Part shown: in pieces, positions 2,763 to 9,121 of the stretch
How the letters are laid out: each line of letters starts with the position of its first letter
Numbering within the stretch: the stretch's first letter is position 1
Source: a virus
Virus genome (UHGV): UHGV-1734134
Length of the DNA stretch: 13,378 nucleotides
Strand: one strand, 5' to 3'
The notes under the pieces: generated by a model
What the model was told of the DNA's origin: nothing
What the model saw: only the letters and a program-made list of their open reading frames with translations
Databases searched by the model: none
Program-made: the position numbers and the translations under genes

Positions 2763-3651
2763 CGTGTTCACCCTCACGAACTTTCAGGTAGGTATTATCG
2801 TTAAGCAGGAAATCAAATCCCTTTTTGTGCCAGACGGTTCCGCGTTGATGGTTTGGGCGCTCTTCGAACATCCATCGGCAATTTTCGCCAACGTAGCTCA
2901 AATAATTTCTCCAGTCCTGCATCGTGAACCCATGCCCGTCAAGCTGGCGGGTTATCACTCCGGCTTTGCGCCAGAACGTTCGGATCTGGTTTTTACGCTT
3001 GTCATTCAGTGCGCGGATTCTTGGAGCTTCAGGAAGGATTTCGTGGTAAGCATCGACAACATCCTGACAGCTGACGGAAGGTTTTTTCTTGTCAGACTTT
3101 TTGTCTGCTGCGGTACTCTCTAATACGTCAGTATTAGAGATAATATTATTATATTCTTTATCTGTGGTAATTTGCTGGTAATCTGCTGGTACAGTATTGC
3201 TTGCAGGCATTGGTATTGCTGGCTTTGAGGTGGTAATTTGCTGGTAATCTGCTGGTACAAAATTTGACTGATAATCGTCATATTTCTCTACCGAGAAAAC
3301 TGAGAATTTACCGTGTGAAACCCAGTCAATCATGCCGAGTTTTTTGAACTTTCTAAGCAGGTACTGAACGCGATCTGGTTTGAGTCCTGTTTCAAACGCC
3401 AGAGAGTTTCTACCGCCAAGTAGCTTCCCTCTGCCTACCAGAATTTCTCCTGCGTCAGTCATTACATACTCAGGCGTATGCTTTGCTTTGAGGATTAAGT
3501 GAACCCACAGATGCGCAGCTTCTGCGTCCTTGTAAAACGGCACATCCATAATTTTACGGTGCAGCAAGGCATACCCCTTACCGCTGCTTTGATGCGGTTG
3601 TTGTAGCCTTCTGGCCTCTCTGGCTTCGGCTAGATTAGATATGTTACTCAT
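2752..3651 (-). CDS. Replication initiator protein, lambda O-like (replisome organiser)
   Basis: 299-aa ORF with AAGGAG upstream of the ATG. Sits immediately upstream of the helicase, as O/gene 18 does in lambdoid phages. Its central linker is encoded by the iteron repeats (tandem peptide [10 protein letters not shown]). Confidence 0.8.
3121..3259. repeat. Putative phage origin of replication: AT-rich block plus iterons inside the O-like gene
   Basis: Perfect 30-bp direct repeat GTGGTAATTTGCTGGTAATCTGCTGGTACA at 3164-3193 and 3230-3259, each built from TGGTAAT(N)TGC sub-repeats. Adjacent AT-rich stretch 3121-3160 (taatacgtcagtattagagataatattattatattc). Same architecture as ori-lambda inside O. 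Confidence 0.65.
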
Positions 3652-4222: not shown

Positions 4223-5575
<1,353 letters not shown>

Positions 5576-5624
5576 TCCCCACCTCAATCTCGATAACCAA
5601 AAACAAACTATTTTTCATTTAAAA

Positions 5625-5638
5625 ACAATGGAGTTTGT
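5625..5638. promoter_or_regulatory. Operator OL3 (434-type 14-mer)
   Basis: ACAATGGAGTTTGT, ACAA-N6-TTGT form. Confidence 0.7.
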
Positions 5639-5655
5639 TTTTCACGCCCCTTTTT

Positions 5656-5669
5656 ACAATATTTCTTGT
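5656..5669. promoter_or_regulatory. Operator OL2 (434-type 14-mer)
   Basis: ACAATATTTCTTGT, reverse complement ACAAGAAATATTGT. Confidence 0.75.
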
Positions 5670-5697
5670 TTACAACATACAATCTTTCTTGTAATTT
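5669..5697 (+). promoter_or_regulatory. Putative PL promoter
   Basis: -35-like TTTACA (5669-5674), 17-bp spacer, -10-like TAATTT (5692-5697). Interleaved with OL1/OL2 and oriented toward nutL and N. Confidence 0.55.
5679..5692. promoter_or_regulatory. Operator OL1 (434-type 14-mer)
   Basis: ACAATCTTTCTTGT, reverse complement ACAAGAAAGATTGT. Overlaps the proposed PL spacer and -10. Confidence 0.75.
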
Positions 5698-5736
5698 TAA
5701 GCCATCAGCAGGACGCACTGACCACCATGAAGGTGA

Positions 5737-5767
5737 GGCTCTTAAAAATTAAGCCCTGAAGAAGGGC
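5737..5767 (+). promoter_or_regulatory. nutL (boxA + boxB)
   Basis: boxA-like GGCTCTTA (5737-5744), then the boxB hairpin GCCCTGAAGAAGGGC (5753-5767), which is identical to lambda nutL boxB. Confidence 0.85.
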
Positions 5768-6035
5768 AGCATTCAAAGCAGAAGGCTTTGGGGTGTGGTG
5801 AAGCCAGCTAGTCACTGGCAAGTGCTTACCTACTGTTGAGCGGTGAAGCGCTCCCAACGCTAGCAATAGCGTGGACGAGATGGGGAGCCGCGGGCGATAA
5901 GGCCGCCATAACGCGCACGTTGTCGCATGGAAAAATCGCTGGGGTGCCGGTTATACCCCTCCGAATGAGACTCAACAAGCTGGAGCTAGACTACCAGCCA
6001 CCACACCACCAAAGCTAACTGACAGGAGAATCCAG

Positions 6036-6368
6036 ATGGATGCACAAACACGCCGCCGCGAACGTCGCGCAGAGAAACAGGCTCAATGGAAAGCAGCAAA
6101 TCCCCTGTTGGTTGGGGTAAGCGCAAAACCAGTTAACCGCCCTATTCTCTCGCTGAATCGCAAACCGAAATCACGAGTAGAAAGCGCACTGAATCCGATA
6201 GACCTTACGGTGCTGGCTGAATACCACGAACAGATTGAAAGCAACCTGCAACGTATTGAGCGCAAGAATCAGCGCACATGGTACAGCAAGCCACGCAGTG
6301 AAATGGGTGTGACCTGCTCAGGCCGCCAGAAGCAACGCGGAAAATCAATTCCAGCTTATTACGATTGA
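6036..6368 (+). CDS. N: Antiterminator N (lambda type)
   Basis: 110 aa with AGGAG upstream. MDAQTRRRERRAEKQAQWKAANPLLVGVSAKPVNRPILSLNRKPKSRVESALNPIDLTVLAEYH... matches lambda N as I recall it, including the arginine-rich boxB-binding motif. Confidence 0.92.
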   Translation: MDAQTRRRERRAEKQAQWKAANPLLVGVSAKPVNRPILSLNRKPKSRVESALNPIDLTVLAEYHEQIESNLQRIERKNQRTWYSKPRSEMGVTCSGRQKQRGKSIPAYYD

Positions 6369-6376
6369 GGTGAGCC

Positions 6377-6514
6377 ATGCTCAAGAAAGTCAAACGCCGA
6401 CTTTACAAAGAAGGTAGATATTCATGCCAGTTGCCAAAATGCGACACAACAAAATGGAGTGTCGACGATTGGTGTAACTGGATAGATAGATACGGAACTT
6501 GGTGGGATAAATAA
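6377..6514 (+). CDS. Small basic, Trp/Cys-containing ORF (45 aa), function unknown
   Basis: ATG at 6377 with GAGGTGA 5 nt upstream, directly after the N stop. Translation MLKKVKRRLYKEGRYSCQLPKCDTTKWSVDDWCNWIDRYGTWWDK. Below the ORF-track size cut-off. Confidence 0.45.
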   Translation: MLKKVKRRLYKEGRYSCQLPKCDTTKWSVDDWCNWIDRYGTWWDK

Positions 6515-6571
6515 CAGGTAACTTAAGCGTATTTACTTTCGCAGCAAACCACTTATTTGAGAGGAATTAAT

Positions 6572-7195
6572 ATGTCATCAATCCGCTTAACTACGAGAAT
6601 GAAAGAGGAAATCGCTCGTAACGCTTTAATTAAGTCTGGGGTCTTCACTGAACTTGAAGAAGTAACAAAGTTAAAGAACCAGCTTGCACTTGACGCCAGA
6701 GTTATTGCGTTTGGCGGTAAAAAGAAAACTGAGGAAGTGGATCAGTTATCATCCAAGTTGGTAGCTATAAGTGAAGAACTTGAAAAGATGGGATGTTCAT
6801 TTTACTCATACGATGTTAGTTCTACTTCAATTTATCTGACTGTATCTGGCAGAAGGGTTGGATGGCATTCATATGGGAAAGACGGCAACGGCGAAGATAT
6901 ATTGCTCCCTACTCCGACCAAAGATAAATGCATGTTTAGCGCAGAACACGAAATAACAAAAAGGTTTGATGAAATCTGCGCATTGCAACAAAAACTTGAA
7001 GCCAAGAAAAAGGATATCGAATCAAATGTATGGGCTGCTTTGAACTCAGTCACAACAGTTAAGCGACTTATTGAAGTTTGGCCTGAAAGCAAAGAATTGC
7101 TACCAAAAGAAGCAGATAAAGCAAGTACAGCACTTCCTGCTTTACGGGTAGAAGATTTGAATAAGATGATTGGACTTCCTTCCGAGGCCGCATAG
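6572..7195 (+). CDS. Hypothetical protein (207 aa), AT-rich moron-like gene in the PL operon
   Basis: ATG at 6572 with GAGAGGAA upstream. No TM segment or signal peptide and no motif I recognise. Visibly lower GC than the flanking N and cIII/kil genes. Followed immediately by a terminator. Confidence 0.75.
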   Translation: MSSIRLTTRMKEEIARNALIKSGVFTELEEVTKLKNQLALDARVIAFGGKKKTEEVDQLSSKLVAISEELEKMGCSFYSYDVSSTSIYLTVSGRRVGWHSYGKDGNGEDILLPTPTKDKCMFSAEHEITKRFDEICALQQKLEAKKKDIESNVWAALNSVTTVKRLIEVWPESKELLPKEADKASTALPALRVEDLNKMIGLPSEAA

Positions 7196-7210
7196 TCGGC
7201 CTTTATTTTT
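7185..7210 (+). terminator. Rho-independent terminator after the 207-aa gene
   Basis: Stem AGGCCG/CGGCCT with a 6-nt loop, followed by TTTATTTTT. Overlaps the stop codon. Confidence 0.6.
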
Positions 7211-7240
7211 GGCATAAACAACAGAATAAACACTGCACTG

Positions 7241-7268
7241 TGTATTCATTCCAACGAGTGAATACACG
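7241..7268. promoter_or_regulatory. Perfect 9-bp inverted repeat (possible protein-binding site or RNA hairpin)
   Basis: GTGTATTCA, 10-nt spacer, TGAATACAC. No U-tract follows, so not a typical terminator. Confidence 0.35.
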
Positions 7269-7329
7269 GAGCAATGTCGCTCGTAACTAAACAGGAGCCG
7301 ACTTGTTCTGATTATTGGAAATCTTCTTT

Positions 7330-7355
7330 GCCCTCCAGTGTGAGGGCCTTTTTAT
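7330..7355 (+). terminator. Rho-independent terminator (tL-like)
   Basis: Stem GCCCTC/GAGGGC with loop CAGTGT, followed by CTTTTTAT. Confidence 0.55.
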
Positions 7356-7368
7356 ATGCATACCAATA

Positions 7369-7392
7369 ACGCTTCATTCGAGGCGTTTTCGT
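7369..7392 (+). terminator. Possible third terminator hairpin
   Basis: ACGCTTC / GAGGCGT stem (one G-U pair) followed by TTTTCGTT. Weaker than the two upstream. Confidence 0.35.
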
Positions 7393-7419
7393 TATGCAAT
7401 CAAATATAAGGAGTTACCC

Positions 7420-7554
7420 ATGATGCACTTTCAGCTCGCGGGTAGCGGCGTCATGTCCGCTTTCTACCCGCACGAATCTGAATTATCACGCCGAGTTAAA
7501 CAATTAATCAGAGCAGCAAAGAAACAACTGGAGGCGTTATGCGCAATGAAATAG
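7420..7554 (+). CDS. cIII: CIII-like protein (FtsH inhibitor that stabilises CII)
   Basis: 44 aa with AAGGAG upstream. MMHFQLAGSGVMSAFYPHESELSRRVKQLIRAAKKQLEAL follows the lambda CIII pattern (MQYAIAGWPVAGCPSESLLERITRKLRDGWKRLIDIL, from memory). Sits immediately upstream of and overlapping kil, as in lambda. Confidence 0.6.
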   Translation: MMHFQLAGSGVMSAFYPHESELSRRVKQLIRAAKKQLEALCAMK

Positions 7555-7691
7555 CCATCAATCACCAGATGCTTCGTGCTGCACAAAACAAAGCAGTAAT
7601 AGCCAGATTTATTGGTGATTCCAAAATGTGGCTTGAAGCAAATAAAGCGATGAAATCAGCTATCAACCTTCCGTGGTATCGCAGGAAATGA
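7539..7691 (+). CDS. kil: Kil-like host-killing protein
   Basis: 50 aa. The block VIARFIGDSKMW resembles lambda Kil TIATFIGDEKMF (from memory). Overlaps the cIII end, as in lambda. Below the ORF-track size cut-off. Confidence 0.5.
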   Translation: MRNEIAINHQMLRAAQNKAVIARFIGDSKMWLEANKAMKSAINLPWYRRK

Positions 7692-7846
7692 GTTTTACAG
7701 ATAACTGGTCAGACGAAGAATTCATTCGTCAGATGAAAGAATTAATCGGTAACGAAGGAGATATTCATGTCACTTGCAACCACAGTGAAGGAGAGCAAGT
7801 TACAGAGACGCATGTACACGCAGAAAGCTCTCTGGTATCGCCATAA
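7688..7846 (+). CDS. Small acidic ORF (52 aa), start coupled to the kil stop
   Basis: ATGA overlap with kil. Translation MSFTDNWSDEEFIRQMKELIGNEGDIHVTCNHSEGEQVTETHVHAESSLVSP. No obvious RBS beyond the coupling. Confidence 0.3.
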   Translation: MSFTDNWSDEEFIRQMKELIGNEGDIHVTCNHSEGEQVTETHVHAESSLVSP

Positions 7847-8653: not shown

Positions 8654-9121
8654 ATGTCTCACTTGGACGGAATTATTAAAAGATTCGAGTCCAGCTACAA
8701 AGTTAATGAAACAACAGGTTGCTGGGAGTCTACCTATTCAAAAAACAAAGGAGGATACACAAAATTTGTAGCCTTTGGCGTAACAATGCTTTCTCATCGG
8801 GTTGCTTTTGAGCTTTATCACTCCCCCATTCCATCTGGGAAGATGGTTTGCCACAAATGCGATAACCCATGCTGCGTTAATCCTGAACATCTCTTTTTAG
8901 GTAGCGCGCAAGAAAACATGGACGACAAGATAGCAAAAGGAAGGCATCGTGGAGCCAAAAAAGGTCATGCTCATCATGGTGCAAAATTAACAGAGTGGCA
9001 GGTTATAGAAATTAGGAAAAGACTCTCTGAAAAAGAGAGTCAGTACAAGATAGCAAAAGACATGGGTGTATCTCAATCAATTATAAGCAACATAAAAATT
9101 GGCAAGAGGTGGAGCAAATGA
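8654..9121 (+). CDS. HNH homing-type endonuclease
   Basis: 155 aa. HNH motif [15 protein letters not shown]..., with a C-terminal basic helix-rich region ([13 protein letters not shown]) typical of the DNA-binding tail of HNH homing endonucleases. Lower GC. Wedged between the annealase and SSB with abutting start and stop codons. Confidence 0.8.

Follow-up and report, generated by a model that had tools for sequence, protein, structure and literature searches.

Two independent accessory modules, DUF5484 and Nmad5, in the N–cIII interval of a lambdoid prophage

The early-left operon of lambdoid phages, transcribed from the leftward promoter PL, carries different genes between the antiterminator gene N and cIII. 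The lambda record lists N, sieB, orf28, ral, ea10 and cIII in this interval, and the same slot is occupied by HK022-type Nun and by P22 gene 17. Here, we describe this slot in the virus genome UHGV-1734134, of which a stretch of 13,378 nucleotides, referred to below as the window, was analysed. It holds a 45-codon open reading frame (ORF), here called ORF45, and a gene for a protein of 207 amino acids (aa) of the Nmad5 family. The initial annotation had described the two as an AT-rich cassette without recognizable motifs, closed by stacked terminators and representing a candidate defence or anti-defence module. The lambda genes, Nun and gene 17 resemble the two genes in their place in the PL operon, in the conserved block with tL2 terminators that flanks them and in being swapped as modules, but no sequence similarity to ORF45 or Nmad5 was detected, and the functions of these slot neighbours, i.e. 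restriction alleviation, exclusion and transcription termination of a competing phage, are not transferable.

Nmad domains were reportedly defined by Iyer and colleagues in 2013, and homologues of the protein described here carry the NCBI name "Nmad5 family putative nucleotide modification protein". A genome note on phage SN1 lists Nmad5 in a thymidine hypermodification cassette. A different context comes from Dhillonvirus mutants that escape the Tmn defence system, in which the causal change is K296E (K216E in a second phage) in an Nmad5 homologue (Yamashita et al. 2025, PMC11846954). Since a phage with the gene deleted was viable and still Tmn-sensitive, the escape mutation represents a gain of function; attempts to clone the wild-type gene failed, apparently owing to toxicity (PMC11846954). 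According to a 2026 preprint, Tmn recognises RIIB in phage T2, and Nmad5 is therefore not a general Tmn trigger. Two further reports do not concern Nmad5: the "NMAD" domain of a DefensePredictor-validated defence system is Nmad2 (PF18753), and a bioRxiv paper on an OLD system that names HK542 does not deal with its Nmad5 gene. Literature searches for PF18757 and the PHROG identifiers, for DUF5484, for tL2 and for lambdoid anti-defence genes returned nothing relevant.

The features of the slot on which the following argument is based are:

6377–6514, + strand: ORF45, a small basic tryptophan-rich protein with a DUF5484 domain (Pfam PF17583, phrog_1871, annotation of Sf6 gene 36)
6541–6561, no strand: junction of two mosaic modules, with Sf6-type DNA ending at 6561 and HK542/mEp235-type DNA beginning at 6541 (BLAST)
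6572–7195, + strand: Nmad5-family protein, 207 aa, a single full-length domain (Pfam PF18757, phrog_1965, RefSeq identity)

Both ORFs proved to be real and to lie where they had been placed, ORF45 directly after the stop codon of N and the second gene encoding a protein without a hydrophobic segment. The view that neither contains a motif had to be given up, since both match curated families well above threshold. The homology search and structure prediction that had been proposed for both proteins led, in the case of Nmad5, to a named family and a confident helical bundle without an enzyme-like fold and, in the case of ORF45, to DUF5484, so that neither is novel. The structure predicted for ORF45 by itself was of low confidence (predicted local distance difference test 62) and was left aside. 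Neither protein showed homology to a gene of established function, and neither gene carries a frameshift.

Residues 4–203 of the Nmad5 protein align with positions 1–206 of the 206-position PF18757 profile (E 1.2e-71, 241.5 bits, gathering cut-off 27), and the match to phrog_1965 has an E value of 6e-84. The protein is 100% identical to WP_001519588.1, which is annotated on a circular P22-like element, and 98% identical to its counterparts in phages HK542 and mEp235. Its ATG start codon stands behind GAGAGGA; because homologues begin with MSSIRLT, the ATG at 6572 and not an upstream TTG is the start. A profile search of 1.84 billion cluster representatives yielded 2318 clusters (defined at 50% identity) at E values up to 1e-3, and the family, with at least 2300 such clusters, extends over lambdoid, N4-like, T1-like and Yuavirus phages. 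Short single-domain proteins, mostly of about 200 aa, make up all of the 150 best-scoring representatives. A scan of genome contigs with the alignment of close relatives yielded only 4 species.

Residues R5, L6, W170, P171, E172, L196, N197, G201 and P203 are invariant in an alignment of Enterobacterales Nmad5 proteins, and an alignment of 41 sequences of about 30% identity leaves L165, W169, E171, P177, L195 and N196 invariant (numbering of its first sequence). The most conserved part is the C-terminal third, with the pattern [ST]-x-x-T-x-K/R-(K/R)-L-L-x-x-W-P-E-x-x-E-L-L-P, a variable linker and L-P-A-x(5)-L-N-x-x-I-G-L-P, and this motif is visible in 24 sampled representatives. The window protein carries the N-terminal R-L-T...N-A...K-x-G as well as the C-terminal WPE..EL.P and L-N-x-x-I-G-L-P elements. 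It thus shares with the PF18757 family the stand-alone architecture of about 200 aa and the C-terminal WPE...LP / LNxxIGLP signature; it differs in that the gene neighbourhood of other phages from which the family name comes is missing at the window locus.

The ratio of nonsynonymous to synonymous substitution (dN/dS) is about 0.4 among close relatives, which indicates purifying selection on the gene, and 65 of the 80 copies are cleanly intact. The Nmad5 gene is functional, and judged from the structural model described below its product is not enzyme-like in appearance. The records of Stx2a-converting phages among the matches listed give tblastn matches to residues 34–207 of Nmad5 only, with a second matching place listed in each record, which suggests that the 5' end of the gene may be disrupted or rearranged in this lineage. 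An antisense ORF of 133 aa (6832–7233) matches no family and was taken as a shadow of the AT-rich Nmad5 gene. The sole match of an Rfam scan, to the ToxT 5' UTR thermometer on the minus strand at 6900–6978 and thus antisense to Nmad5, stays below threshold (28.3 bits against a gathering cut-off of 81, E 0.06) and was taken as a chance match in AT-rich sequence.

Module boundaries were determined by BLAST against annotated phages. Window positions 5700–6561 are 99.4% identical to Sf6, in which N is followed by gene 36 and ral. The DNA from 6541 onwards is of another type, 98.4% identical to mEp235 up to 7700 and 98.6% identical to HK542 up to 7413; the order in mEp235 is N, a Nun-like gene and Nmad5, and in HK542 Nmad5 follows N directly. 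Among 80 IMG/VR phage loci with an Nmad5 protein of at least 95% identity, ORF45 lies directly upstream of Nmad5 in four and 499 nucleotides (nt) upstream in one more. The same picture emerged from complete E. coli genomes: 355 have a match within 6369–7215, only 25 of them match at least 80% of it, i.e. both parts, and most matches stop or start at query positions 173–193, which is the same break point.

It could be argued that ORF45 and Nmad5 form a functional two-component cassette, as they are adjacent and co-oriented, have both a GC content of about 40%, and recur in this arrangement in about 25 E. coli genomes. However, each is far commoner without the other: ORF45 occurs with ral in Sf6, Nmad5 follows N in HK542 or a Nun-like gene in mEp235, and the ORF45 family belongs chiefly to T4-like phages, in which no Nmad5 gene is near it. 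The co-occurrence data largely refute the cassette, to which we give next to no chance, and the two-gene unit of the initial annotation resolves into different mosaic modules with a junction at 6541–6561. The comparison across related prophages that it had proposed indeed revealed modules swapping independently in the N–cIII slot. From the sequence comparisons we firmly conclude that ORF45 and Nmad5 are independent accessory modules and represent ordinary mosaic phage DNA. Nmad5 travels as a module of its own, as the DNA matches to HK542 and mEp235 show.

The proposed horizontal exchange and accessory hot-spot found support in the relatives, in which the slot contents vary between ral, a Nun-like protein, a TolA-like protein, an ORF of phrog_1636 or ea10, and by lambda with its sieB, orf28 and ral; the sequence data support a hyper-variable accessory slot with horizontally exchanged genes. 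The argument from base composition holds in part. ORF45 (40.6% GC) and the Nmad5 gene (40.2%, third codon positions 34.6%) are more AT-rich than N (51.4%), cIII (47.4%) and the window as a whole (46.4%), but not more so than kil (41.2%) or an HNH endonuclease gene further downstream (40%). Nmad5 is usually followed at once by the conserved block described below, and a segment of about 0.5 kb intervenes in about a dozen of the loci L020–L099. In the one such locus examined (L023, 5688–6158), the segment encodes a 156-aa ORF of phrog_1636. ORF45, Nmad5 and the terminators are all already catalogued, and their arrangement is one of many N–cIII mosaics.

ORF45 starts 8 nt past the N stop codon behind the Shine-Dalgarno sequence GAGGTGA and encodes 45 aa with an isoelectric point (pI) of 9.4, five tryptophans and three cysteines. 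Residues 5–42 match positions 3–41 of the 43-position PF17583 profile (46.7 bits, gathering cut-off 27), and phrog_1871 is matched with E 1.4e-22. Gene 36 of Sf6 spans the same stretch and is called similar to T4 orf55.4 in the Sf6 record. By tblastn, ORF45 has matches in 1037 phage records, mostly T4-like and at about 50% identity. K6, R7, K11, G13, Y15, P20, T24, W27, W32, I36, D37, G40 and W42 are invariant in the family alignment, in which no cysteine is conserved, and zinc binding by the three cysteines was therefore rejected as unlikely. Among the closest described relatives is the T4-type gene 55.4: ORF45 is 50% identical to gp55.4 of phage RB32 over about 41 residues and shares its length and its Lys/Arg/Trp pattern, but the RB32 gene belongs to a group of small early genes close to nrdG and nrdH, whereas ORF45 follows an antiterminator gene. 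The sequence comparisons show ORF45 to be a DUF5484 (T4 55.4-like) protein that travels with this allele of N, as in Sf6. The identical arrangement occurs in E. coli AW1.7 (L184, 9001–9203), where the 45-aa DUF5484 ORF carries no annotation from the NCBI Prokaryotic Genome Annotation Pipeline, and the gene is probably under-annotated in RefSeq prophages.

The time at which the two genes might be expressed follows from their place between the elements of early-left transcription listed here:

4542–5174: cI repressor with an S24 peptidase domain
5640–5704, + strand: leftward operator and promoter (OL/PL) region, with 434-type operator half-sites ACAA...TTGT and the putative promoter TTTACA-17-TAATTT
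5753–5767, + strand: boxB hairpin of nutL, GCCCTGAAGAAGGGC; nutL is annotated at the homologous place in the Sf6 record
6036–6368, + strand: lambda-type antiterminator N, 110 aa (Pfam N36, E 1.6e-26; 97.7% DNA identity to lambda N)
7184–7212, + strand: first intrinsic-terminator-like site after PL (hairpin 7184–7203), GAGGCCG-CAUAGU-CGGCCUU then UAUUUUU; free energy (dG) -11 kcal/mol
7186–7357, + strand: conserved lambdoid intergenic block, overlapping the "boundary sequence" bsq4 of the Sf6 record
7238–7269, + strand: perfect 14-bp stem with a 4-nt loop and no U-run after it; dG -22.8 kcal/mol, z-score -7.05, with 0 of 200 shuffles folding as well
7330–7355, + strand: homologue of lambda tL2a (hairpin 7330–7347), GCCCUC-CAGUGU-GAGGGC then CUUUUUAU; dG -10.7 kcal/mol
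7368–7395, + strand: homologue of the lambda ea10–cIII spacer hairpin (hairpin 7368–7387), with a U-run after it; dG -9.9 kcal/mol
7420–7554, + strand: cIII, the first gene past the terminator block (Pfam PF08134, E 2e-30)
7539–7691: kil, part of the PL operon

The window represents the early region of a lambdoid prophage, with the leftward operon on the + strand; its immunity is of the 434 type, and its cI resembles the 434 repressor. The PL hexamers were read by eye from the sequence, as the promoter scan gave no call there; OL and PL are annotated at the homologous position of the Sf6 record, and homology to lambda begins at window position 5703, which corresponds to lambda 35583 (BLAST). 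Transcription would start at about 5704. The boxB hairpin was also flagged by the terminator scan, on the minus strand. A scan of 5500–7700 returned no promoter-like site, being so insensitive that it overlooked PL as well, and reading of 6369–6571 disclosed no promoter of its own for ORF45 or Nmad5.

The intrinsic-terminator scan found no + strand site between PL and 7184, and three such sites within about 210 nt from there on, whereas shuffled sequences contained on average 2.6 sites in 2.2 kb, both strands counted. The lambda N–ral segment, which carries tL1, has no counterpart in the window (BLAST), and 7184–7212 is therefore the first intrinsic terminator after PL. Its loop contains the TAG stop codon of Nmad5 (7193–7195). 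The 3' arm and the T-run of this hairpin are kept in lambda, Sf6, HK542 and mEp235, and its 5' arm consists of the last codons of Nmad5; the stem of lambda is weaker.

The lambda tL2 terminator cluster was reportedly described by Luk and Szybalski in 1983. The conserved block is shared with lambda, Sf6, HK542 and mEp235 in a five-way alignment that includes the window: 7192–7357 is 97% identical to lambda 34087–33923, which is the spacer between the stop codon of ral and the start of ea10, and 7185–7353 is 97% identical to Sf6, in whose record the entry "terminator tL2A, homology to phage lambda" stands at locus positions 3269–3297, corresponding to window 7328–7356. The adjoining 7358–7396 is 95% identical to lambda 33522–33483, the ea10–cIII spacer; its hairpin is tL2b, and tL2a and tL2b make up the lambda tL2 cluster. 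The window thus resembles this cluster in the 95–97% DNA identity to both spacers and in its hairpins and U-runs, and differs in that ea10 is missing, which is why the two terminators stand only about 20 nt apart, and in the stronger stem at 7184–7203. The stacked terminators of the initial annotation are real, including the stop codon in the loop of the first hairpin, and owe their stacking to this short distance, but to judge from these alignments they belong to the slot, as part of the conserved lambdoid block, and not to ORF45 or Nmad5. Within the ral–ea10 part, the stem at 7238–7269 is invariant in all five aligned phages; it may serve in RNA processing, for instance by RNase III.

Because ORF45 and Nmad5 lie between PL, nutL and N on one side and the first intrinsic terminator on the other, we infer that they would be part of the N-independent immediate-early transcript, and that cIII and the genes beyond would depend on N. 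The earlier proposal that any PL transcription reads both genes, with N needed beyond them, stands at this conditional strength.

The name of the family implies that Nmad5 takes part in nucleotide or DNA base modification. This reading draws on the SN1 cassette listing, on the neighbouring thymidylate synthase gene in N4-like phages and on the Yuavirus PAE1 of Pseudomonas, in which Nmad5 lies between a 5-hydroxymethyldeoxyuridine (5-hmdU) DNA kinase with an HNH gene and a thymidylate-synthase-like gene with a deoxynucleotidase; the Yuavirus-type neighbourhood is the origin of the name. Family scans found no modification gene in the 13.4-kb window or in its close relative AW1.7; the window genes that they identified are N, cIII, kil, Rad52-like, HNH, the single-stranded DNA-binding protein gene SSB, Abc2, Ead/Ea22 and DUF551. 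Neither did a base-modifying enzyme family match at least two of 132 neighbouring ORFs in 17 loci with Nmad5 proteins that share less than 70% identity with one another, a small sample biased by the search pattern. The DNA of lambdoid coliphages is not known to carry hypermodified bases. In the AlphaFold2 model of Nmad5 (predicted local distance difference test 85, predicted template modelling score 0.71), three long helices precede a small beta element, after which come a fourth long helix and short C-terminal helices; confidence is low for the linker and for the last residues, though they flank the conserved C-terminal motif. Model and alignment contain no enzyme-like fold and no catalytic-looking invariant residues, and we consider a part of Nmad5 in modification very unlikely. 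No solved structure resembling the model was found, so that Nmad5 has no relative among the anti-defence proteins of known structure; searches of the PDB with the single sequence and with the family profile returned only chance coiled-coil matches, and an NCBIfam scan gave no match.

In other phages, Nmad5 resides in varied genome modules, including head and tail modules, early-gene blocks and replication modules. It stands on the opposite strand within the head module of Dhillonvirus, in the tail module of one Vibrio phage and elsewhere in blocks of small early genes, and the order in N4-like phages is polymerase, thymidylate synthase, Nmad5, PD-(D/E)XK nuclease, primase-like gene and Sak4. 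In Klebsiella and Serratia prophages (L004–L008, gene at 6001–6630), Nmad5 is the first ORF after the repressor and heads the early-left operon, with no N gene called between the two. In the sole leader examined (Klebsiella, L006), the gene is followed by kil and preceded, at a distance of about 265 nt, by a TTGACG-17-TATTAT promoter-like site. Nmad5 as a substitute for N in these prophages was rejected, as the protein is structured and near-neutral (pI 6.2), co-exists with N in the window and is present in lytic phages. All five of these long loci also have an HTH_ParB (PF17762) gene within 6 kb. In the 17 diverse loci, the commonest neighbours are helix-turn-helix (HTH) and S24 repressors, i.e. 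the immunity region, followed by replication and recombination proteins. Families matched by at least two ORFs are DUF2800, Enc34 single-stranded DNA-binding protein, DNA polymerase A, PD-(D/E)XK nuclease, Rv2179c-like exonuclease and helicase C; RecT, YqaJ, AAA_24 and a primase zinc ribbon were matched once each.

These neighbours provide the case for the main rival explanation, according to which Nmad5 assists the phage machinery of replication, recombination or nucleotide supply as an accessory subunit, such as a scaffold or mediator acting with a recombinase, a single-stranded DNA-binding protein or a nuclease of the same operon, and plays no role in host immunity. The replication and recombination families among the neighbours, the N4-like gene order and the continuation of the same window operon into Rad52-like annealing protein, SSB and Abc2 all agree with it. 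On the other hand, some phages have Nmad5 in a head or tail module or on the opposite strand, lambdoids exchange it freely for ral, a Nun-like gene or nothing while the recombination module varies independently, the commonest neighbours belong to the immunity region, and the Dhillonvirus deletion is viable (PMC11846954). On balance, we regard this explanation as rather improbable.

A role in prophage defence or superinfection exclusion, after the model of sieB, Nun or P22 gene 17, would suit a slot occupied by exclusion genes in lambda (sieB), mEp235 (Nun-like) and P22-type phages, and a GP17-family gene was indeed found once as a neighbour. However, ORF45 and Nmad5 are co-oriented members of a cI-repressed PL operon in which no promoter-like site of their own was found, PADLOC-DB returned no match at E values up to 1 for ORF45, Nmad5 or a 158-aa ORF, and the Nmad5 family is abundant in strictly lytic phages, where protection of a lysogen makes no sense. 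The defence half of the original suggestion is thus highly improbable. Its anti-defence half is a reasonable hypothesis for Nmad5, supported by the position, by the lack of an enzyme-like fold and by one link of a distant homologue to Tmn.

The explanation that we prefer is the following. ORF45 and Nmad5 would be transcribed along with N from the onset of infection or induction, N antitermination not being needed, and would be silent in the repressed lysogen. As short single-domain proteins scattered over unrelated modules, Nmad5 proteins appear to be accessory and moron-like. Nmad5 would be a non-catalytic binding protein, built from a helical bundle, a small beta element and a near-universal C-terminal signature, which would act early on a host, defence or DNA-metabolism component as a dispensable take-over or counter-defence accessory, and would be neither a defence system nor a nucleotide-modifying enzyme. 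Early binding to such a component is the weakest step of the explanation, and we propose it tentatively, as a possibility that falls somewhat short of probable.

The possible link to Tmn is based on the Nmad5 proteins of the Dhillonviruses phiSMS22 and phiSMA8, which contain the same Pfam domain (E 1.2e-55) and are 31% identical to the window protein over the C-terminal 100 residues. In the alignment, K296 falls on R165 of the window protein, within the K/R-K/R pair of the conserved TxK(K/R)LLxxWPE motif. The Dhillonvirus protein differs in its length of 334 aa, with an N-terminal extension, and in belonging to a lytic siphovirus. A more far-reaching version of our explanation would see in Nmad5 a widespread immediate-early counter-defence or host-takeover adaptor, whose invariant WPE / LNxxIGLP module docks on a conserved bacterial component and whose Tmn-escape substitution (K296E, aligned with R165) rewires the same interaction, so that "nucleotide modification" would be a misnomer; in this full form we think it unlikely.

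Several points weigh against the preferred explanation, even in its restricted form. Immediate-early expression was deduced from the DNA sequence with intrinsic terminators considered, by means of a promoter scan that missed PL itself. The neighbours of diverse Nmad5 members are enriched for replication and recombination genes, among them those of the Sak4/RecT type, and the N4-like and Yuavirus genes lie beside thymidylate-synthase-like genes, with the 5-hmdU DNA kinase adjacent; both patterns would agree just as well with a function in the DNA metabolism of the phage itself. The Tmn result concerns a 334-aa homolog of a lytic phage at 31% identity over 100 residues and a gain-of-function allele, and is therefore no demonstration that wild-type Nmad5 counters or triggers anything. 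Finally, the literature searched names no partner or activity for any Nmad5 protein.

Two further genes of the window lie outside the slot. An ORF at 5099–5575, with a likelier start at 5171, immediately follows cI, where lambda has rexAB. It is the counterpart of Sf6 gene 38 and belongs to phrog_2651, has no Pfam match, and shows a signal-peptide-like N-terminus when read from M25. Its place between cI and PL makes it a better candidate than ORF45 or Nmad5 for a lysogen-expressed moron or exclusion gene. After kil, the PL operon continues with the genes for a Rad52-like annealing protein, an HNH endonuclease, SSB and Abc2. The AT-rich HNH gene (8654–9121) looks like a homing-endonuclease insertion, since the Rad52-like and SSB genes that flank it abut directly in Sf6 and mEp235.

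The value that is left lies in a lead on Nmad5, a large phage family whose database name suggests an enzyme. Three pointers lead away from catalysis, namely a fold that is not enzyme-like, the lack of modification genes nearby and the first or second place after PL in temperate Enterobacterales phages. HK542 and mEp235 are plaque-forming laboratory phages with a 98% identical gene, which makes direct testing possible. In addition, a conserved basic residue of Nmad5 is the one altered in the Tmn escape of a distant homologue.

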